This document shows, piece by piece, positions 1,053 to 24,443 of a stretch of DNA of 60,042 nt (the first letter of the stretch is position 1; every line of letters starts with the position of its first letter). The notes beneath the pieces are model-generated. The model saw nothing but the letters and a program-made list of their open reading frames with translations, ran no database searches and was not told the origin of the DNA. The DNA is taken from the sequence record KX534337. One strand, 5' to 3'. The translations under genes and the position numbers were made by a program. Source of the stretch: Escherichia phage Greed.

Positions 1053-1844
1053 TTACAGTTTGTCTTTGAACTCTTCGATATATTGCTCGATCGGATACTG
1101 CTTACGCTTGAAACGATCAAACAAGATTTTAGCAGATTCTACGTCTTCGTCGCTCTCTTTACTTGCGCCCGGTGCCATAAAATCACGCCATGTAAAACCG
1201 TTCAGATTATGCATCTTAGCGATGTGCTTGTTGTAACGGCTTTCCCAGTCCACACGCGGACCTTCCATCTTGCGTAAACCGCGCCCAAGCACCTGTACAT
1301 ACAAATCTTTCTGACGTTGTACAGCTTCACCATTATAAGGTCCGGTTTTAAACTCAACAACACTACCGTTAAGATCTGCACCATCCGCAAAGTTGTGTAG
1401 CATAGTTTCAATAACGTCATTCAATGTTGGAACCGTCACTTTGCCCTGGGCAATGCCTGCCAAATAACCGACGTTTTCTTCACCGTACAACTCGATCAGT
1501 TCTTTCTTGGTTGCTTCTGCTTCTTTGTTTGCGGACAAAGCCAACATCTGTTGTTCGAACATGTGTTCCTGTTCCAGGAAGTGAGCATAGCGCTCTTCGT
1601 CTACTTTGCACACAATCCATTTATATTCAACATCCTTGCTGAAGTCCGGATACTGATCTACTTCTACTACTTCCGTAGTAAAGAACTTGCCGTTATATTG
1701 AATAACAACTGTATCGCCCGGCTGCAATTCGTCACTTTCCAGAGCACGGTAGGTATAAAGACGACCACCCGCTTCAAACTTAACTTTGACAGTTACAACG
1801 CCTTTTAACAGAGCATGATAAGCTTTCTGAAATTCTTTACGCAT
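1053..1844 (-). CDS. Hypothetical protein (263 aa)
   Basis: Long ORF, GAGGA-type RBS upstream of ATG at 1844; no recognisable motif. Confidence 0.5.
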   Translation of the reverse strand: MRKEFQKAYHALLKGVVTVKVKFEAGGRLYTYRALESDELQPGDTVVIQYNGKFFTTEVVEVDQYPDFSKDVEYKWIVCKVDEERYAHFLEQEHMFEQQMLALSANKEAEATKKELIELYGEENVGYLAGIAQGKVTVPTLNDVIETMLHNFADGADLNGSVVEFKTGPYNGEAVQRQKDLYVQVLGRGLRKMEGPRVDWESRYNKHIAKMHNLNGFTWRDFMAPGASKESDEDVESAKILFDRFKRKQYPIEQYIEEFKDKL

Positions 1845-1885
1845 TTTAGTTTCCTCTTGGGCGGATTGACCGCCCGTTAATGTGG

Positions 1886-2296
1886 TTAGGCTTTATTCGG
1901 CACAATTTCCAGAGACGCGGAACCAACTTTCGATTCAACGCACTGGTTAAAGACTGCGGCTTGCTCCGCTGTAAGTTTACGCCAAGCCGCAACTTTCAAC
2001 ACAGGTTTATTTTCCACAAGCTGATCAACGTTAACACCAACTTTAATCAGATCGCCCAGGATTCCGTTAAGGCTTGGAAGATCAATCTTGCGATCAATCT
2101 TGTGTGTCATTTTCATAACCCCGCCAGTAATTTCAACTTTATTAGTCCCTTCTGATGGAGCAGGGAAATAGGACTTAATAATCTTTTCGCGTAGTGCTCG
2201 CTCGCGAGCTTGAAGCTTTTGTAATTCTGCTTTGGTTTTATACCACTCAATGACATCTGCTTCGGTTGCTTGTACTGCTTTATCTGCGTCGAACAT
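1886..2296 (-). CDS. Hypothetical protein (136 aa; track ORF extends to 2356)
   Basis: Internal ATG at 2296..2294 (MFDADKAV...) has a GAGGA RBS; the upstream extension has none. Confidence 0.45.
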   Translation of the reverse strand: MFDADKAVQATEADVIEWYKTKAELQKLQARERALREKIIKSYFPAPSEGTNKVEITGGVMKMTHKIDRKIDLPSLNGILGDLIKVGVNVDQLVENKPVLKVAAWRKLTAEQAAVFNQCVESKVGSASLEIVPNKA

Positions 2297-2328
2297 TTTT
2301 CTATCCTCTGTTGTGTTTCGATGTATGT

Positions 2329-2356
2329 ATAATAGCACATCCATGTGACAGGGCAA
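2329..2356 (-). promoter_or_regulatory. Putative sigma70-like promoter (minus strand)
   Basis: Minus-strand TTGCCC, 16-bp spacer, TATTAT located about 35 nt upstream of the 2296 start. Confidence 0.3.
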
Positions 2357-2537
2357 GACTCAATCTGTATCAATTAATCTTTTTAAACGGATTAGTAATC
2401 TAGCAACCTTCCTCCATTCAGCATCCTCCATTAATGGTGAAGGCTTATACGCTTCAGGTATCGGACAAGGTATATATGGCTCCATGTCAGATATTACTTG
2501 CTTTGATAACTTTTTCTTCCGTTTACCCATAAATGGC

Positions 2538-3125
2538 CTATTTCAAATAGCGGGAAGTCATAATTGGATGCAAAGACACTTCTTCCTCAGATGTAACCAC
2601 ATTTGCAGACGATCCAGTGGACCCGAAGCCGTTAGCACCGCGCTCAGTGGTCTTAAGCTCGTCCACTTCTACCAGTTGCACGCTGGGCAGCTTAATAAGC
2701 ATAGCTTGCGCAATGCGATCACCATGATTGACAGTAAAACTACCATCGTTATCAATAGTGATCTTAACCTTAAGTTCCCCAGTGTAGTCGCTATCAATGA
2801 CGCCCACGCAGTTTGCCAGACGCACGTTGTTTTTGAATCCGTGTCCGCTACGGGAATACACCATAAGCGCGTGACCTTCAGGAATATCAAACGCCAATCC
2901 TGTGTGGAATATGTGCTCGTAAGAGAAAATAATTTGCTCACATCCATCTTCACTCTTAAGATCCGCGTGCAGGTCAAAGCAAGCTGCCCCCGCACTGGCA
3001 AACGATGGAAGAATTGCGCTGTCTGTTAAGCGTTTCACCCCGAGAAGAGTTGGCGCAAAGGATGCAGCAGTTACGCTAGAATTAGTTATAGAAATAGTGT
3101 GCATATTATTTAATACGTCCGTCAT
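2538..3125 (-). CDS. dut: dUTP diphosphatase (trimeric dUTPase)
   Basis: All five dUTPase motifs present: AGAACFDL, YSRSGHG, GVIDSDYTGE, GDRIAQ, RGANGFGSTG. Confidence 0.85.
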   Translation of the reverse strand: MTDVLNNMHTISITNSSVTAASFAPTLLGVKRLTDSAILPSFASAGAACFDLHADLKSEDGCEQIIFSYEHIFHTGLAFDIPEGHALMVYSRSGHGFKNNVRLANCVGVIDSDYTGELKVKITIDNDGSFTVNHGDRIAQAMLIKLPSVQLVEVDELKTTERGANGFGSTGSSANVVTSEEEVSLHPIMTSRYLK

Positions 3126-3134
3126 AATTTCACC

Positions 3135-3602
3135 TTATTGGATTGAACCGCGATCAATTAACCATTGTTTCGCGTGCGCCTTAAAGATAATGCGGTAGTC
3201 ATCGAGACTAATTTCCGCGCGGATGGAATCTTTAACTTCATACCACTGCCATTCACCATTACTGAAGACAACCGGATTAAGCGGTAGAACGACCTTCCAT
3301 CCTTTACGTTCTATTTTATACATCAGAACTGGATATCTGCCAAGCTCTTTAGCAGATTGGACAGTCTGCTTCCACCATGTGTTTACTTGTGGCGTAGCAT
3401 GGTTTTTTACTTCAACCGCATGGTGGCATGTATTGCTGATATCACAACCACCGACAGCACTTTGATTCTGGTTTCGCTGAGCAATAGGTTTTTCCGGTAA
3501 CTGCATCCCCAGCTCTGCGTAGATTTCGGCATAAATTGCATTAAAGAAATCACATACTTCCCGCTCACCGCGTTGACCTTTAGCGCGAATATTTACTGCC
3601 AT
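3135..3602 (-). CDS. Putative PD-(D/E)xK nuclease (Holliday-junction-resolvase-like)
   Basis: 155 aa; KGQRGEREV...GGCDIS...VEVKN resembles the Hjc/PD-(D/E)xK core; assignment by motif only. Confidence 0.4.
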   Translation of the reverse strand: MAVNIRAKGQRGEREVCDFFNAIYAEIYAELGMQLPEKPIAQRNQNQSAVGGCDISNTCHHAVEVKNHATPQVNTWWKQTVQSAKELGRYPVLMYKIERKGWKVVLPLNPVVFSNGEWQWYEVKDSIRAEISLDDYRIIFKAHAKQWLIDRGSIQ

Positions 3603-14683: not shown

Positions 14684-15076
14684 ATGCTATTAGTCGTCAC
14701 CGGAGGTCGAGATTTTAAGCATGTGGAGTATATTTATGCTCAATTGGATAAGCTGCATATGCAAAGAAGGATAACCACACTACGCCACGGTGACGCTGAC
14801 GGTGTTGACCGCATTTGCGCACAGTGGGCAGAGCGCAACGGTATTAAGACAGAAGCGTTCCCTGCCCCGTGGGACAATCTTTCCTTACCAAATACCAAGA
14901 TACGGTATAATGCCAAAGGTGCTTATAATGCACAAGCAGGCGCTTACCGCAATCAATTAATGCTGGATACCGATCCTAAACCGGATCACGCTATTGTGTT
15001 TCCTGGCGGAGCTGGTACTATGGATATGTACAGACGGATTAAAGCATCCGGTATTCCTTACACTTTAGCGGAGTAA
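14684..15076 (+). CDS. SLOG/DprA-like Rossmann-fold protein (DUF2493-like)
   Basis: 130 aa; VVTGGRDF...HGDADGVDRICAQWA...FPGGAGTMD matches the glycine-rich nucleotide-binding pattern of SLOG-type proteins; motif-level call only. Confidence 0.4.
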   Translation: MLLVVTGGRDFKHVEYIYAQLDKLHMQRRITTLRHGDADGVDRICAQWAERNGIKTEAFPAPWDNLSLPNTKIRYNAKGAYNAQAGAYRNQLMLDTDPKPDHAIVFPGGAGTMDMYRRIKASGIPYTLAE

Positions 15077-15079
15077 ATA

Positions 15080-15550
15080 ATGGCTGACGTTAAAACTATT
15101 GTTGATGCAATGGACGAGTCCAAAGACTGCCAACTGAAGAAGTCGTTTGAAGTAAAACAGGTTACAGAGACTCAGTTGGTCTGTAATTTTGCGCGTTATT
15201 GTGGACTGGGGCGCGGGAAAGACTGGAACGGGCTTATTGTTATGCCCACATCGCAGATTCTCGTTTACGTCCGCAATATTGTAGAAGATCTTTTGCGTCT
15301 TCAAATAGATATTGGTGACGTAGAAATCAACATGACCGCGAGCTCTACCATTGTGGTTAAATGGCAGTCGGGCGAGACACTGCGTTTGGAAGCGTGTTAT
15401 TGTGCTAAGAGCTTGCACCACCTGCGCGGCTGTCATTACCAGTTCGTTGGGTTTGTACATCCGCAAGGGTTAAGCGAGCGTACGGCGCTTGTAGCTCGTT
15501 TGCTGCTGCGTCCTTATAATAACGAGCCGGAAGTCATATACGAGGCATAA
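15080..15550 (+). CDS. Hypothetical protein (156 aa)
   Basis: ORF 4 nt after the upstream stop; no motif. Confidence 0.45.
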   Translation: MADVKTIVDAMDESKDCQLKKSFEVKQVTETQLVCNFARYCGLGRGKDWNGLIVMPTSQILVYVRNIVEDLLRLQIDIGDVEINMTASSTIVVKWQSGETLRLEACYCAKSLHHLRGCHYQFVGFVHPQGLSERTALVARLLLRPYNNEPEVIYEA

Positions 15551-15551
15551 G

Positions 15552-15758
15552 ATGGAAACTCCATTAGCTAAACAAATGATAGAGCGTGCGGATCGGGACG
15601 GTTTACCGGAAGACCATGCTATGCGTCGAACTGCCCAAGTATTTGACGAAATTAGCGTTAAATATGCGATGGGTAAGAGCACGCCTAAAGGTTTATTGGG
15701 CGCCTGGGCTCGCGCTTGGCGCTGCTGGTGCAACTACACCGGAGAACCACTTGTATGA
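15552..15758 (+). CDS. Hypothetical protein (68 aa)
   Basis: Small ORF, coupled to neighbours. Confidence 0.4.
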   Translation: METPLAKQMIERADRDGLPEDHAMRRTAQVFDEISVKYAMGKSTPKGLLGAWARAWRCWCNYTGEPLV

Positions 15759-16177
15759 TTAAACACGTTAAACAGCCAACGTTGAATACATGCGTTTCTG
15801 CGTGTTTGGCAATGATCCTTAATAAACCTGTCGAAAAGGTCATTAAGGAATTTCACAGTCGTTATTATAACAACTGGGAAATCACTATCAGCGAATATTT
15901 GACTAAAAACGGCGTCCCGCATCATTGTTCAGAAGGTGGTGGGCGTGAAACTTTGCATATGGGAGGTTTGTTCCTATGCACGGTGCCAAGTCTTAATATT
16001 CCTGGCGCATTGCACCAGATTGTGATTGATATGACGGATCACAAGTTTATTGTGCATGATCCAATTAAAGGATGGGAAGGTAAAAAGTTCTATGTTGGTC
16101 CGGATCAAGATCCTGAAGAGCCTGGAGCTTTTATCATTCATACTTGGGTCAAAGACGTTGAAATCCTGCCTTATTAA
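15755..16177 (+). CDS. Putative C39-like (papain-fold) cysteine peptidase
   Basis: ATG at 15755 overlapping the upstream stop; QPTLNTCVSACLAMIL resembles the C39 catalytic-Cys region and HKFIVHDP a candidate catalytic His; motif-level only. Confidence 0.4.
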   Translation: MIKHVKQPTLNTCVSACLAMILNKPVEKVIKEFHSRYYNNWEITISEYLTKNGVPHHCSEGGGRETLHMGGLFLCTVPSLNIPGALHQIVIDMTDHKFIVHDPIKGWEGKKFYVGPDQDPEEPGAFIIHTWVKDVEILPY

Positions 16178-16239
16178 TTTTCTTGCTATCACATAACCCT
16201 TCATTGTATTGTGTACCCATCGAATAAGAGGGGTACACA

Positions 16240-16425
16240 ATGACCAAACTATACGCCGGATTGTTTTTATTTGCGACGTTGATGTTCGCTGGGCTTTATA
16301 CCTATACAGTAGTCGAACAACCTTCCACGGTTATCCGAATCTTTGCAAGTACAGGGCTTTGCATCTGTCTTATTCTATTTGTTTTATGCATTGTTATTAT
16401 CCAAGACCAAAGGAAAGTTAAATGA
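16240..16425 (+). CDS. Small membrane protein (61 aa)
   Basis: Two hydrophobic helices; RBS AGAGGGG embedded in an inverted repeat. Confidence 0.4.
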   Translation: MTKLYAGLFLFATLMFAGLYTYTVVEQPSTVIRIFASTGLCICLILFVLCIVIIQDQRKVK

Positions 16426-16886
16426 CCACAATTGCGTTTGATGGAAAAGTATTAGCTGCGGACCGTGGCGTTATGCGCGGGGAAGCTGTGACTGCTTATA
16501 AGAAAGTTCATAGCGTGAATGGACATCGTGGACGGTTTTTACTGGGCTTGTGCGGTTTGACAGCATTTACCGATCAGGTGTTGCGTTATTTTAATAGCGC
16601 GGAACCTGTTAAGTTCCCTGATATTAAACTTTACAGCAAAGATGATGATTACGGGCAAACTTGCGGTCTTGCTGTCACTCCGGAAGGTACTTGCCATTTT
16701 ATTTATAATGATGGTACTTTGAGCGAACCCATGCTGGATGGATGGGGATCTGAGGGTAGCGGTTGTGTGTTTGCTGCTGGCGCGTTAGCTGCTGGTGCAA
16801 GTGCGAGCGAAGCTATTGAGTTGGCAATTAAACACACCACATGCGCATTCCTGGGAGTTGATACAATATCATTTGAGGGTTTTTAA
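16422..16886 (+). CDS. HslV/proteasome-beta-like Ntn-hydrolase peptidase (putative)
   Basis: Begins MTTIAFDGK (Thr exposed after Met removal, as in HslV MTTIVSV); KKV, GLCGLTA and GSEGSGCVFAAGALAAG parallel HslV GFAGGTA and IGSGGPYAQAAARAL. Confidence 0.45.
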   Translation: MTTIAFDGKVLAADRGVMRGEAVTAYKKVHSVNGHRGRFLLGLCGLTAFTDQVLRYFNSAEPVKFPDIKLYSKDDDYGQTCGLAVTPEGTCHFIYNDGTLSEPMLDGWGSEGSGCVFAAGALAAGASASEAIELAIKHTTCAFLGVDTISFEGF

Positions 16887-17147
16887 ATGACTACATTCAG
16901 TCACCTGATCCCACCTGCTTATCATAGTAAGGTAGTTGACCACGGGACGCATGTTGTAATTGGTGGCGAAATCTTTATCACAGATAACGAGGAAATCGCC
17001 ATTGCAATTATTGACAGCACTCAGCATGACTTTATGGTTATCCTGCAACACGAACCAGATAACTTCACTTTTTACTCCAGCTACGGGGTCGATAAAGGTG
17101 GAAAAAGCCTTGTTAGCTGGTACATTAGTGAGTGGTTTGACGGGTAA
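16887..17147 (+). CDS. Hypothetical protein (86 aa)
   Basis: ORF starting 1 nt after the upstream stop. Confidence 0.4.
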   Translation: MTTFSHLIPPAYHSKVVDHGTHVVIGGEIFITDNEEIAIAIIDSTQHDFMVILQHEPDNFTFYSSYGVDKGGKSLVSWYISEWFDG

Positions 17148-17229
17148 TCTCCTTAGATCAATTCTCCTTGCGCCGTATCAAGTTTCTCTGTTACCCTTGA
17201 GTGGTTCATGTCAAGCGGAGGAACTCGAT

Positions 17230-17667
17230 ATGGCACTTCAACCTCGTGGTATTCGTAATAACAATCCAGGCAATATTCGCTGGGGTGATAATTGGCAGGG
17301 CTTAGTTCCTGCTGATAAGCGAACCGATAAATCTTTTGCTCAATTCACGCAACCGATTTACGGCATTCGTGCGCTAGCGAAAATCCTGACAAACTACACC
17401 AAACGTGAAGGCTTGCCCAATGTAGGTAAGAAAAACATCGACACTGTACGTGAAATTATCGCTCGCTGGGCACCGCCTAACGAAAACGATACGGAAGCGT
17501 ATATTCGCTCTGTTGCTAAAGCAATTGGTGTTCAACCTAACGATCCAATTAATGTCTTCGACAAGGCAATTATGTCAGGATTGGTGAAAGCAATCATTCG
17601 TCATGAAAATGGCATGATGCCCTATACCGACGACGTAATTAACCGCGCTATTGCAATGGTACTTTAA
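17230..17667 (+). CDS. Hypothetical protein with NNPGNIR motif (candidate endolysin by position; track ORF starts at 16960)
   Basis: ATG at 17230 has a GGAGG RBS; lies immediately upstream of the holin; function not recognisable from sequence. Confidence 0.45.
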   Translation: MALQPRGIRNNNPGNIRWGDNWQGLVPADKRTDKSFAQFTQPIYGIRALAKILTNYTKREGLPNVGKKNIDTVREIIARWAPPNENDTEAYIRSVAKAIGVQPNDPINVFDKAIMSGLVKAIIRHENGMMPYTDDVINRAIAMVL

Positions 17668-17672
17668 CTGAC

Positions 17673-17693
17673 GGGGCGTTAGCCCCTTTTATT
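17673..17693 (+). terminator. Putative rho-independent terminator
   Basis: GGGGC/GCCCC stem with GTTA loop followed by TTTTATTT. Confidence 0.45.
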
Positions 17694-17703
17694 TGGAGGG
17701 AAC

Positions 17704-18048
17704 ATGTTCAATTCACCCAACGAACATTGGGCAGTTCTAGCGGGGTTTGCGTTTATCTCCCTCATTGGGGGAGCTCTCGGTTATGTCATGCGTACAATAG
17801 ACGCTGGTAAGAAAGTACGGGCAAGCATTGCGTTTCTTGAAGGCTTATCCGCCGCTTTCTTTGGCGTTATAATGTATGCGATCTACAGGGAGTTTAACAT
17901 CAGCCTTTGGTTCGCTTTTGGCCTTGCTGGCCTATTTGCTTGGGCAGGTTCACGTGCTACGCTAAAAGCCCTAACGTCGCTTATAGCTTCACGGACAGGG
18001 ATCAAACTCGATTCAGGGGACTGCAAACATGAAAACGATTCTAAATAA
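17704..18048 (+). CDS. Holin
   Basis: 114 aa with three hydrophobic helices and a charged C-terminus, directly upstream of the spanin pair. Confidence 0.6.
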   Translation: MFNSPNEHWAVLAGFAFISLIGGALGYVMRTIDAGKKVRASIAFLEGLSAAFFGVIMYAIYREFNISLWFAFGLAGLFAWAGSRATLKALTSLIASRTGIKLDSGDCKHENDSK

Positions 18049-20794: not shown

Positions 20795-22291
20795 ATGGGT
20801 ATTGATGCAACTCACCCGCTATATGACAAGTGGAAGGACGCATGGGTTAAGTGCAACGACTGCTATGAGGGTGAAGATAAAATTAAGGAAGAAGGTGTTA
20901 AATATCTACCACCTTTAGCTTCCATGATTATTGATGGGATGAATAATCCTAATGATTTGGGCTTTCAACGTTGGCTCGCTTATCGTCTGCGTGCTAACTT
21001 CCCTGACGATTATTCAAGTGCGGTTACAAACAATTTAGGTCTGCTACACCAGAAGCCTCCTACAATCCAGCTCCCACCTGAAATGGAATACATGCGGGAG
21101 CTGTGTACTGCGGACGGTGAAGACATTATTGCTCTGCTACGTCGCATCAATGAAATGCAGTTAAAAAATGGACGTTTGGGCCTGCTGCTGGACTTGCCGA
21201 AAGGTGAGGATGTAAATAACAGACCTTATATTAGCGTTTATGATGCTTTATCCATTATCAACTGGGATGATGGTAAAGATGAATTGGGCAATATCAACTT
21301 GAACATGGTTGTTCTGGATGAAAGCGGTCCTGTACGTGTCAATCAGTTTGACTGGAAAGAAGAGAAGCGTTATCGCGTTCTACAATTAGGTCCAATGGAC
21401 ACAGATGAAGTAGCAGGTGGAGCGGTCTACTCCCAACATCTGTTTATTAACAATACCAATTATGATGAAGGGCAAATGATTGCTCCTTATTATAAAGGTA
21501 ATACGCTGGATGAAATTCCTTTCCAGTTTGTCAATACAACAGATATTACCCCAGCACCGGAAGCGCCGCCATTGTTGGGTCTTGCTAACATTTGTCTAAG
21601 CATGTACCGAAGTGACGCGGATTACCGCCAATGCTTGCATATGCAGGGTCAGGATACTTTAGTTGTTGTTGGTGGCTCTGGCGAGAATGGGGATAAAGCC
21701 CCTCAACGTATTGGTCCTGGTGCGGTGATTAACGTTGCTCTTGGGGGTGACGCTAAATATGTAGGCGTTAGCGGCGATGGTTTGTCCGAGCAACGCCTTG
21801 CATTGGCGGCGGATAAGCAGGAAGCTCAGATTAAAGCTGGGCAGATGGTAAACAACACCAAGAGCACGCAGGAATCAGGCGAAGCTATGAAAACGCGTAT
21901 TGCTGCGCGTACCGCTAGCCTGATTCGAATTGCGTATACTGGTGCGGCAGGTTTGGAAAACTTGCTGAAGGTCTGCGCTAAATGGATGGGTGCTGATCCA
22001 GAGAAAGTTGTGGTTAAGCCTAATCTTGAATTTACCAAGAGCATGTTTAACGGTCAGGACTTTGTTCAAATTATTACTGCACGCAACCTTAAGGCTCCGA
22101 TCAGTTTGCAGTCTATTCATGGCTGGCTTGTTGATCAGGGCTTAACCACACTAAGCTTTGAAGAAGAAATGGCAATTCTTGAAGAAGAGCTTAAGAAGTG
22201 GCCTCTGCCCGATGATGCTAAAGCTGATTTAAACGCAGAGCAGCAAGTAAACAAAGATCCTAAGGAAGACGACGCTTCCGATAAAGAATAG
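20795..22291 (+). CDS. Portal protein
   Basis: 498 aa ORF directly after terL with an acidic C-terminus; standard gene order. Confidence 0.6.
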   Translation: MGIDATHPLYDKWKDAWVKCNDCYEGEDKIKEEGVKYLPPLASMIIDGMNNPNDLGFQRWLAYRLRANFPDDYSSAVTNNLGLLHQKPPTIQLPPEMEYMRELCTADGEDIIALLRRINEMQLKNGRLGLLLDLPKGEDVNNRPYISVYDALSIINWDDGKDELGNINLNMVVLDESGPVRVNQFDWKEEKRYRVLQLGPMDTDEVAGGAVYSQHLFINNTNYDEGQMIAPYYKGNTLDEIPFQFVNTTDITPAPEAPPLLGLANICLSMYRSDADYRQCLHMQGQDTLVVVGGSGENGDKAPQRIGPGAVINVALGGDAKYVGVSGDGLSEQRLALAADKQEAQIKAGQMVNNTKSTQESGEAMKTRIAARTASLIRIAYTGAAGLENLLKVCAKWMGADPEKVVVKPNLEFTKSMFNGQDFVQIITARNLKAPISLQSIHGWLVDQGLTTLSFEEEMAILEEELKKWPLPDDAKADLNAEQQVNKDPKEDDASDKE

Positions 22292-22386
22292 TTGCAACTT
22301 GCAAGTTGATCGGTTTATATTAACGAACACGGGGCTGGGACGGCTCAGCCCCAAAAACGTCACACGGGTGACAACGGAGATAAGAA

Positions 22387-23259
22387 ATGAAAAAGAGTTC
22401 TGTAGCTATTAGTGTTGGTATGGCTTTGATTAATCCACGCGCTCGCGGTGAAGGTGATGTGGAACTGGAATATGAATATGCATCTGCGGAAGAAATCCCG
22501 GCAGAGTTTGCTGCTCTTTACGCAGAGCAGGGCGGTAAATACGTTCTTGCAAAAGTTAAAGGTGTAGCCCCTGCTGATAGCGTTCGTCGTCTGGAAAGTG
22601 CGTTAGCTAAAGAACGTAACGACCATCGTCAGGTGAAGCAACAGATTAGCGCGCTTGGGCGTCCGGTTGAAGAAGTTCTTGCGGACCTTGATCGTATCCC
22701 TCAACTGGAAGCTGCCGCTAACGGTAAAGGTACTCCGGAAGACATCGAAAAGATGGTTAAAGCCCGTCTTGCTCCGCTCGAGCGTCAATTACAAACTGTA
22801 GCAGCTGAACGCGATTCCGTTAAGCAGGAAATTGAAGGCTACCGCACTCGCGAAACTAAAGCGAAGATTAAAGACGCAGTTATTGCTGCTGCATCCGGTG
22901 CTAAGCTGCGTCCGTCTGCTATCGAAGATGCGGTGACTTATGCACAGTTGCAAATGACCGTCGACGAGAACGGCAATGTGGTTACGAAAGATGGGGCTGG
23001 TGTAACTCCATACCTGACTCCGGCTGATTGGCTGAACGAAATCCTTCCGAAACGTCCGCACTGGGCTGAAGGATCTGCTGGTGGTGGTGCATCTGGTCCG
23101 GGCGCTGGCGGACATCACGGCGAAGACCCTTACAGTCACGACGGTTGGAACATCTCTAAACAGATGAATCTCTGGAAAACTAATCAATCTTTAGCTAAAC
23201 GCTTAGCTGAAAAGAATGGCGTAGACCCGCTGAAGCCTGTACGTCCTGCTAAGAAATAA
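22387..23259 (+). CDS. Putative scaffolding/head morphogenesis protein
   Basis: 290 aa, charged coiled-coil-like protein between portal and major capsid genes. Confidence 0.4.
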   Translation: MKKSSVAISVGMALINPRARGEGDVELEYEYASAEEIPAEFAALYAEQGGKYVLAKVKGVAPADSVRRLESALAKERNDHRQVKQQISALGRPVEEVLADLDRIPQLEAAANGKGTPEDIEKMVKARLAPLERQLQTVAAERDSVKQEIEGYRTRETKAKIKDAVIAAASGAKLRPSAIEDAVTYAQLQMTVDENGNVVTKDGAGVTPYLTPADWLNEILPKRPHWAEGSAGGGASGPGAGGHHGEDPYSHDGWNISKQMNLWKTNQSLAKRLAEKNGVDPLKPVRPAKK

Positions 23260-23273
23260 GTTGACATCCCGAC

Positions 23274-23305
23274 GTCCCTGATGTTAAGTTTCAACACATC
23301 AGGGA
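23274..23305 (+). promoter_or_regulatory. Stem-loop in the leader of the major capsid gene
   Basis: Inverted repeat GTCCCTGATGTT/AACACATCAGGGAC with 8-nt loop and no T-tract; lies in a 122-nt leader. Confidence 0.35.
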
Positions 23306-23381
23306 CACGGGTTCCTAAACAGCCTTCCACGGGGAAAGGCTACCAACAGTAAACAAATCAATCCTTTTCCTGGAGACAAGT

Positions 23382-24443
23382 ATGTCTAAATCTAAAATTA
23401 TTCTACCATTTGGTCGTGGTGAAACTGACCTGACTCGTTTGAAGGATGTCATTGTCCCTGAGATCTTCACTGGTTATGTGCAGACGCAGACCGCTGAACT
23501 TTCTGCTCTGATTCAATCCGGTGCGGTTGTAATGGACGAGCGTTTATCTGCTAACCTTGCTGGTGCAGGTCTGACTTTTAACGAGCCGTTCTATAACGAC
23601 CTGAAAGATGAAGACGAAGATATCGCTGTTGATAAAGGCGATCCGTCCAAACCGTCTAACATCACTACCGGATCTGAAGTTCAGGTTCGTATGAGTCGTT
23701 CAAAATCCTGGGGTTCTGCGGATCTGGTATCAGCTTTGATTGGTAACGACCCAATGACCGCTATCGGTAACCGCGTGTCTGCGTGGTGGGTCCGCCGTCT
23801 GCAAGCTGCATACATCGCAACCTGGAAAGGTGTATTTGCTAATGCGAAGAAATCTCATAACGACGATTTGACTTTCGACATCTCTGGTTCTTCTTTTGTA
23901 AATAACCAGACCAACTTTACCGCGTCTAACTTCATCAACGCAACTGCAACGATGGGTGATGCTGCCCGCGGTCTGACTATGATTATGGTACACTCTACCG
24001 TTCGTAACCGTATGCGTCAGTTGAACCTGATCGACTTCATTCCAGATGCTCGCGGTGAAACTCAGTTTGAGTATTATCAGGGTCTGCGTATTATTGAAGA
24101 CGACTCCATGCCACACGATCCGTCTGCTGGTGTGTTTGAAAGCTGGCTGTTCGGCCCGGGCGCAACTGCAATGGGTGCTGGATCACCGAAAGTTCCGACC
24201 GCTGTGGTGCGTGACGAAGCCGCTAACCAAGGCGCTGGTGAAGAAGTTCTTCACAACCGTGTTGAATGGATTCTGCATCCGGTTGGCCATGCTTGGGCTG
24301 CTGCTCAAACTGCTAAAGGTGGTCCGTCTAACGCTGCTACCACTAACAACCTGGCCCATGAAGATTCCTGGCGTCGTGCGTTCCCTGAGCGCAAGCAGCT
24401 TAAAGTTGCACGCCTGATCACTCGTGAGTATCAGGGTTCCTAA
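23382..24443 (+). CDS. Major capsid protein
   Basis: 353 aa; position after the scaffold-like gene, long leader, terminator immediately downstream. Confidence 0.6.
   Translation: MSKSKIILPFGRGETDLTRLKDVIVPEIFTGYVQTQTAELSALIQSGAVVMDERLSANLAGAGLTFNEPFYNDLKDEDEDIAVDKGDPSKPSNITTGSEVQVRMSRSKSWGSADLVSALIGNDPMTAIGNRVSAWWVRRLQAAYIATWKGVFANAKKSHNDDLTFDISGSSFVNNQTNFTASNFINATATMGDAARGLTMIMVHSTVRNRMRQLNLIDFIPDARGETQFEYYQGLRIIEDDSMPHDPSAGVFESWLFGPGATAMGAGSPKVPTAVVRDEAANQGAGEEVLHNRVEWILHPVGHAWAAAQTAKGGPSNAATTNNLAHEDSWRRAFPERKQLKVARLITREYQGS

Follow-up and report, generated by a model that had tools for sequence, protein, structure and literature searches.

A pair of peptidase genes in phage Greed

Escherichia phage Greed (KX534337) carries two peptidase genes on either side of a gene for a small membrane protein. 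We call the whole 60,042-nucleotide stretch of this DNA that was analysed the window. The first of the three genes encodes a C39-like cysteine peptidase and the last a proteasome homolog of the PPH type (Table 1). An earlier note on the sequence suggested that the three may form a processing or export module. We argue instead that the peptidases are two independent single-gene accessory proteases. They would be neighbours only through an accessory block that abuts the lysis and packaging block. We put the probability of this reading at about 0.6.

The three open reading frames (ORFs) lie at the positions the note gave, all on the plus strand, and the motifs it quoted are found in them. ATGA overlaps join genes at 15755-15758 and 16422-16425, and the gene that follows PPH begins at 16887, right after its stop. 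Each protein matches a phage family in PHROGs. The 140-aa protein belongs to phrog_4049 (1e-58), the 61-aa protein to phrog_22841 (4.6e-45) and the 154-aa protein to phrog_1040, which is labelled 'peptidase HslV family' (5.4e-32). Comparison of the window with phage CSP1C gives a ratio of nonsynonymous to synonymous substitution rates (dN/dS) of 0.026 at dS 0.55 for PPH and of 0.05-0.15 for the 61-aa gene, which indicates purifying selection on both. These are genuine genes and not chance ORFs, because the family matches are far beyond chance and selection is purifying.

Over bases 15500-17700 the identity to Escherichia phage KS_A3 is 99.4%, which places the window in Seuratvirus. To Seurat, CAjan and further Seuratvirus phages (Queuovirinae) it is 92-98%. 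From about 11 to 42 kb the plus strand holds, in order, small accessory genes, lysis genes, and packaging, head and connector genes. The three-gene locus is the final kilobase of the accessory block and stands immediately before the lysis cassette.

Table 1. Positions of the peptidase genes, of the features around them and of related genes in other phages.
Feature	Sequence	Position	Strand	Remarks
C39-like cysteine peptidase	window	15755-16177	+	140 aa; MIKHVKQPTLNTCVSACLAMIL...HKFIVHDP
Membrane protein	window	16240-16425	+	61 aa; two hydrophobic segments
PPH-type proteasome homolog	window	16422-16886	+	154 aa; MTTIAFDG...GSEGSG...AAGALAAG
Hairpin, 12 bp	window	16207-16242	+	covers Shine-Dalgarno region and AUG of the 61-aa gene
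SLOG/YspA-like protein	window	14684-15076	+	Pfam PF10686, 2.1e-18
68-aa gene	window	15552-15758	+	phrog_27185
Endolysin	window	17230-17667	+	lysis block
Holin	window	17704-18048	+	lysis block, which also holds spanins
TerS	window	18689	+	
TerL	window	19224	+	
Portal	window	20795	+	
Scaffold	window	22387	+	
Major head protein	window	23382	+	followed by connector genes
SLOG homolog	L060	10465-10833		related locus
SLOG homolog	L005	2669-2986		related locus
C39-like insert	Maynard (Salmonella phage, L006)	2980-3429		
Topoisomerase II large subunit	Maynard (Salmonella phage, L006)	1065-2978		

A stand-alone C39-like cysteine peptidase

The predicted active site of the 140-aa protein consists of the oxyanion glutamine Q7, the nucleophile C13, H87 and D102. 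Q7, H87, D102 and P103 are invariant in an alignment of 73 homologs. C13 is found in 72 of the 73, and the remaining one has serine. The AlphaFold model has a predicted local distance difference test (pLDDT) score of 95.3. A profile comparison with the peptidase domain of CvaB, using a CvaB sequence 100% identical to plasmid cvaB, gives E 4.7e-6 and pairs Q7, C13, H87 and D102 with Q26, C32, H105 and D121. C32 and H105 are the residues that Wu and Tai reportedly defined by experiment as catalytic in 2004. The papain/C39-like assignment of the earlier note holds, since the Gln/Cys/His/Asp set is intact and the closest fold is that of the leader-peptide-cleaving domains. In MEROPS, peptidase C39 is placed in clan CA. 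The motif HKFIVHDP, which the note had picked out, does contain the catalytic D102, but the catalytic histidine is elsewhere, being H87 in the motif GALHQ.

Curated models barely reach this family. Pfam Peptidase_C39 (PF03412) reaches 13.7 bits where the cut-off is 22 and covers residues 3-24 alone, so it stays below the gathering threshold. Run against the 73 homologs it gives weak matches in 21, with E 7e-4 for the strongest. Neither the protein nor the family profile found a significant sequence match in the PDB, and an NCBIfam search returned none. The family itself is large. An exhaustive profile search yields 1072 clusters at 50% identity, in which nearly every protein has about 140 aa, and members are found in 196 phage records, yet PHROGs gives phrog_4049 the label 'unknown function'. 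A scan of a genome collection for bacterial contexts found 2 loci only. The longer family members that were checked carry no toxin-carrier domains, and their fusion partners are uninformative. From sequence and model together, we regard the 140-aa protein as a predicted stand-alone C39-fold cysteine peptidase with a full catalytic set that lies outside the curated Pfam family.

The gene is a stand-alone ORF, and its product is without a signal peptide, membrane domain or N-terminal extension. Its neighbourhood has no ABC transporter or other export component. One possible leader was considered, the segment VVIGG in the 86-aa protein encoded downstream of PPH. It is hydrophobic at -4 and -12 only and contains glycine and proline. 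We judged it not leader-like, by inspection alone. In the absence of a signal peptide, a membrane domain and an exporter, the peptidase would act in the cytoplasm of the infected cell. Every characterised C39 enzyme cuts after a small-residue site of the Gly-Gly type, and by analogy with these the phage enzyme would do the same. Another view makes it an accessory of lysis, that is, a cell-wall peptidase like the NlpC/P60 and CHAP enzymes or like PeiR, PeiW and PeiP, which are phage pseudomurein endoisopeptidases. We consider this very improbable.

An ordinary member of the PPH family

The key residues of the 154-aa protein are T2, which would be Thr1 once Met is removed, D14, K28, G45 and G112-S113-G114. 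A profile search collected 141 short homologs of about 140-165 aa, mostly on phage-sized contigs. K28 is invariant in an alignment of 71 sequences, at least 90% of which keep M1, T2, D14, G45 and G114. Comparison by hhalign with HslV of E. coli MG1655 gives a probability of 96% (E 1.7e-9) and aligns Thr1, Asp17, Lys33 and the GSG motif. The gap in this alignment faces HslV residues of about 60-90, which is the region of helix H2. The AlphaFold2 model (pLDDT 97.2) agrees, as it has helices at 47-58, 115-123 and 128-138 only and the second helix of the first pair is missing. Foldseek with this model places HslV at the top, with the proteasome beta5 subunit and BPH, at E of about 1e-5. Pfam Proteasome (PF00227) falls short on the 154-aa protein, at 15.4 bits against a threshold of 22.4.

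A family with these features has been described. PPH proteins have about 140 residues, belong to group I beside HslV and BPH, and are without H2 (Fuchs et al. 2021, PMC8665760). They were termed the first truly viral proteasome-like family and are typical of tailed phages (PMC8665760). Our assignment rests on these published features of the family, whose representative is WP_042125023.1 (OC.1434257). As far as sequence and model can tell, the 154-aa protein appears to be an ordinary member of PPH, and no difference in kind was found.

The earlier note had called this protein an N-terminal nucleophile (Ntn) hydrolase resembling HslV, and this is borne out by the proteasome-beta-like fold and the catalytic residues that are present. 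The same can be said of both peptidases, in that their catalytic residues are conserved among homologs and their structure models fit peptidase folds. The profile searches that the note proposed came out divided: comparison of profiles supports both folds and families, but the two Pfam models, PF03412 and PF00227, are below threshold.

Host methionine aminopeptidase would strip Met1 of PPH and expose the threonine nucleophile. The predicted catalytic partners Asp, Lys and Gly-Ser-Gly are in place in sequence and model, which points to peptidase activity. The protein probably forms ring oligomers like HslV and BPH and would degrade peptides or unfolded proteins. Our literature search found no later paper on the function of PPH.

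Are the peptidases one module?

Co-occurrence, which the earlier note had suggested as a check, was counted in 71 IMG/VR loci with a C39-like gene and 80 PPH loci. PPH is within 10 kb of the C39-like gene in 15 of the 71, always downstream and on the same strand. Of the 45 C39-like loci whose downstream sequence reaches 6 kb or more, 9 have it. In the other direction the C39-like gene is found in 2/80 PPH loci, both of them Seuratvirus. Six loci that have both genes are of lambdoid type. In these the C39-like gene is in a nin-type early region and PPH is 3.2-5.6 kb downstream. In three of the six PPH is 3.5-5.6 kb downstream and directly precedes TerS-TerL-portal. The fourth has only a portal-like gene further downstream, and in the other two too little of the sequence beyond PPH is resolved or available to decide.

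The two genes are adjacent in four lineages, all siphophages of about 58-61 kb: Seuratvirus, Nonagvirus, Vidquintavirus (Vid5) and Craquatrovirus (PSTCR7). What lies between them is not the same. The Seuratvirus gap is 245 bp and holds the 61-aa gene. The Nonagvirus gap of 330-644 bp holds one or two soluble proteins (117-120 aa and 96 aa). Vid5 has a SLOG gene there, and in PSTCR7 there is no intervening gene and the stop and start of the two peptidase genes overlap. On the reciprocal neighbourhood counts and the variable intervening gene we reject an obligate pair or module.

One can still imagine that the two peptidases and the small membrane protein between them make up one processing, export or maturation unit. 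The three genes lie close together on one strand, stop codons overlap start codons, and the peptidase genes stay adjacent across four genera and overlap in PSTCR7. Against this, 78 of the 80 PPH loci have no C39-like gene and 56 of the 71 C39-like loci have no PPH. The membrane protein is confined to Seuratvirus, and elsewhere the intervening gene is swapped or absent. The locus has no ABC transporter or other exporter. There is also nothing to mature in PPH itself, which has no propeptide to process because the N-terminus is Met-Thr in at least 90% of homologs. We give a single unit little credence, and the module proposed in the note does not stand: the families are mostly apart, different lineages have different genes between them or none, and there is no exporter.

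The two independent accessory proteases that we favour would come together in Seuratvirus because the genome is compact and the order accessory-lysis-packaging brings the genes within 250 bp. Several observations weigh against this reading. The co-occurrence of 15/71 is well above random expectation. Four genera keep the genes within 0-650 bp on one strand, although protein identity is down to 28-40%. In PSTCR7 stop and start overlap, and the SLOG gene travels with both peptidase genes. No data on expression timing turned up, and promoter and terminator scans of the region did no better than on shuffled sequence. Some functional linkage of the C39-like peptidase and PPH within this clade is possible.

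The membrane protein and other neighbours

The 61-aa protein has two predicted transmembrane helices and a maximum Kyte-Doolittle mean over 19 residues of 2.96, so hydropathy confirms the two-helix membrane protein of the earlier note. Among all loci compared, tblastn matches to it are confined to Seuratvirus. The hairpin over its translation start has a predicted energy of -20.1 kcal/mol (z = -3.9 against shuffles), and its sequence is invariant in Seurat, CSP1C and locus L009. The 61-aa protein would be an insert particular to its lineage, and the hairpin over the ribosome-binding site probably holds down its translation. The hairpin may thus limit synthesis of a small membrane protein that could be toxic; alternatively, it may serve as a site for RNA processing.

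The 86-aa protein was also considered as a conserved partner of PPH. It was rejected, as it has no similarity to the ORF downstream of PPH in PSTCR7 (E = 7). It is limited to Seuratvirus, save for one weak paralog-like match. The 68-aa gene just before the C39-like gene marks an indel: KS_A3-like phages have it, but it is missing from Seurat, CAjan and many others, which align at 90% coverage in two pieces. The start of the endolysin (17230 in Table 1) is ambiguous within 16960-17667 on the plus strand. Records give either 145 aa, from the ATG at 17230, or about 213 aa, and the open frame reaches back to a TTG at 16960 that overlaps the 86-aa gene.

The SLOG/YspA-like gene accompanies the peptidase genes in three genera, Seuratvirus, Vid5 and PSTCR7. 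The Vid5 homolog, with 41% identity, is the one between the C39-like and PPH genes. The homolog in PSTCR7 is directly upstream of the C39-like gene. A SLOG/YspA-like gene is also found 1.7 kb upstream of PPH in locus L112. SLOG proteins are predicted to bind or process nucleotides. A counter-defence role for this one is conceivable, but we regard it as a recurrent neighbour, that is, as context rather than a proven partner.

Possible roles of PPH

PPH is usually found in late modules. TerL-type clusters are its neighbours in 29+17+5 of 78 loci, and other common neighbours are portal, TerS, HNH, the adaptor Ad1, Hc1, Neck1 and the tail terminator. Two spots recur in the PPH loci (L078-L157), one directly before TerS/TerL and the other between Ad1 and the head-closure protein Hc1. 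An HNH endonuclease is often near PPH (12 loci). The embedding in late packaging, head and connector genes in most phages suggests that the role of PPH would be late in infection. A Kuttervirus 'C-N hydrolase' (Maynard_187) was tried as a hidden PPH and rejected, with an hhalign probability of 0.1%.

This niche raises the question of a morphogenetic protease, which would remove scaffold or mature the capsid where the head module is without a canonical prohead protease. PPH does stand beside TerS, TerL or portal, or between Ad1 and Hc1, in many unrelated loci. The head module of the window (20795-24443, plus strand) has a portal, a scaffold (phrog_206) and a major head protein and no recognisable prohead protease, and no protease family is among the recurrent neighbours of PPH. 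But scaffold-only heads of the P22, SPP1 and T7 types need no protease, and the position of PPH inside late modules varies in a moron-like way. Few relatives with the same head genes were checked for the absence of PPH, and a literature search for Seuratvirus virion proteomics gave no proteomic evidence for such a role. We think a morphogenetic PPH improbable. Head and connector genes of these types (phrog_206/784, 477, 161 and 169) are also found on many contigs that carry PPH.

Another scenario has PPH replace or poison host HslV by docking on host HslU, which would redirect ATP-dependent proteolysis. HslV is the closest solved relative of PPH, host hslU is encoded beside hslV, and the genes adjoining PPH showed no phage ATPase partner. 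However, the H2 helix region of HslV is missing, which implies a different surface, and PPH is present in phages of many hosts. BPH and Anbu also function without a known partner of the HslU type (PMC8665760). Docking on HslU seems to us a shade less probable than the morphogenetic role.

Possible targets of the C39-like peptidase

The C39-like gene has a different niche. In about 30 lambdoid-type loci the order is cI, Ant, replication initiator, DnaC-like loader, the C39-like gene, NinB, NinG and a Q-like gene. In Mydovirus, Samunavirus and Vibrio phages it is within arrays of small hypothetical genes, and in Kuttervirus it is between topoisomerase II subunit genes. Literature searches on the function of phage C39 peptidases gave nothing relevant. 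We argue that a host protein would be the substrate, because no candidate substrate gene is shared by the unrelated phage carriers. The gene's habitual place in many unrelated phages, among early, replication and nin-region genes, also speaks for a host target. Host takeover or counter-defence would be the purpose, and such host-takeover or anti-defence roles, which the earlier note had raised, are possible.

There is precedent for a C39 domain that acts in the cytoplasm. The C39-fold toxin Cpe1 of the type VI secretion system (T6SS) cuts the HAGGK ATP-lid of GyrB and ParE (PMC12136450). So does StbD-CT, a C39-fold toxin of contact-dependent inhibition (CDI) (bioRxiv 10.64898/2026.05.07.723447). 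By analogy phrog_4049 might be the phage counterpart of these toxins and make an early cut in GyrB/ParE or at another host Gly-Gly site. The other site could be a ubiquitin-like conjugate of a defence system. In its strict form this idea makes the peptidase a host-takeover weapon that cleaves the HAGGK Gly-Gly of host GyrB/ParE and collapses DNA topology. We hold both forms to be unlikely, if less so than any rival above. As a speculation by analogy, the HAGGK ATP-lid of GyrB/ParE would nonetheless be the best concrete substrate candidate for the 140-aa enzyme.

In Kuttervirus/Agtrevirus, of the Ackermannviridae, the C39-like gene is an insert that some phages have and others lack, placed precisely where the genes for the large and medium subunits of the phage topoisomerase II meet. 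Maynard's version of the insert is found at full coverage in 28 of 234 records. Ag3, Se-J/Se-H and a few others have a divergent version at the same site. The insert is absent from Cba120, Det7, Vi01 and heyday, where the two topoisomerase genes abut. The ATP-lid of the Kuttervirus/Agtrevirus topoisomerase reads LYAGSNF, whereas that of E. coli GyrB is LHAGGKF and that of T4 gp39 is KAGGNF. We considered the lost Gly-Gly of this lid as a signature of self-protection and rejected it, since AGS is equally present in phages without the C39-like gene and is therefore neutral.

Several points weigh against a topoisomerase target. The AGS motif is family-wide and is also in Cba120, Det7, Vi01 and heyday, which lack the gene, so it does not correlate with carriage of the gene. 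The linkage to topoisomerase genes is seen in one phage family only, and no topoisomerase gene is seen in the window phage. Destruction of gyrase would also be awkward for lambdoid carriers, which would be expected to need it for replication. Finally, the phage family is no closer in sequence to Cpe1/StbD-CT than to the C39 domains of transporters. The Kuttervirus topoisomerase context is suggestive and is not a test.

Prior annotation and significance

Both peptidases are already recognised by annotation pipelines. We offer a correct reading of them and no new kind of system. The 154-aa protein has been deposited as 'peptidase HslV family', 'putative protease', 'ATP-dependent protease' and 'proteasome subunit alpha type-2'. 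One metagenomic record names the 140-aa protein by the title of a ComA peptidase-domain structure. The CSP1C record (PQ202980.1, L001) uses 'cysteine protease' and 'HslV', but its product names are apparently shifted by one gene. Thus 'cysteine protease' is on the 61-aa gene and 'HslV' on the 86-aa gene. Likewise a holin-sized gene bears the name 'endolysin', and 'DprA' is given to the gene that follows the one for the SLOG protein. The earlier note overstated its case in calling these peptidases unusual phage cargo. PPH is typical of tailed phages, and the C39-like family has more than 1000 clusters besides its place in 196 phage records.

Both families are nevertheless worth attention. They are large with strictly conserved active sites, and the C39-like one has no functional label in PHROGs. 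The mapped niches are testable starting points, with the C39-like gene among early, nin and topoisomerase genes and PPH among late packaging and connector genes. The C39 toxins that destroy gyrase and topoisomerase IV offer a concrete assay for the phage enzyme. The interest lies mainly in the possibility that the phage C39-like family acts on type II topoisomerases of the host or on another Gly-Gly site. If that were true, phrog_4049 peptidases would shut down host DNA topology early in infection. The Kuttervirus/Agtrevirus gene would then ride in the operon of a phage topoisomerase II whose own lid has lost the Gly-Gly.

Comparison with known systems

PPH is the simpler case. The published family and the phage protein are alike in size, at about 140 and 154 aa, and both are in tailed phages of Proteobacteria. 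The Met-Thr N-terminus without a propeptide, the conserved Asp, Lys and Gly, the absence of H2 and the closeness to HslV and BPH are all matched. The protein agrees with HslV (ClpQ) in the Ntn fold, the N-terminal MTTI and the equivalents of Asp17, Lys33 and GSG. It is about 20 residues shorter than HslV (154 against about 175 aa), is without H2 and has an identity of about 17-24%. No gene for an HslU-like ATPase adjoins it, so it is not HslV proper.

The fold of the C39-like protein is a known one, and the protein forms a stand-alone phage branch of it. It has in common with CvaB the HDP motif around the catalytic Asp. The C39 domains of CvaB, ComA, PCAT1 and LahT belong to ABC exporters of bacteriocins and quorum peptides, while the phage protein is without transmembrane or ABC domains. 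No double-glycine leader substrate or exporter is near its gene, which is encoded in early or accessory phage regions. Cpe1 and StbD-CT differ from it in another way. The phage protein is without a PAAR, Rhs or CdiA carrier, an entry domain or a recognised immunity gene, the genes around it are those of a phage, and profile searches of the PDB detect no similarity between it and these toxins.

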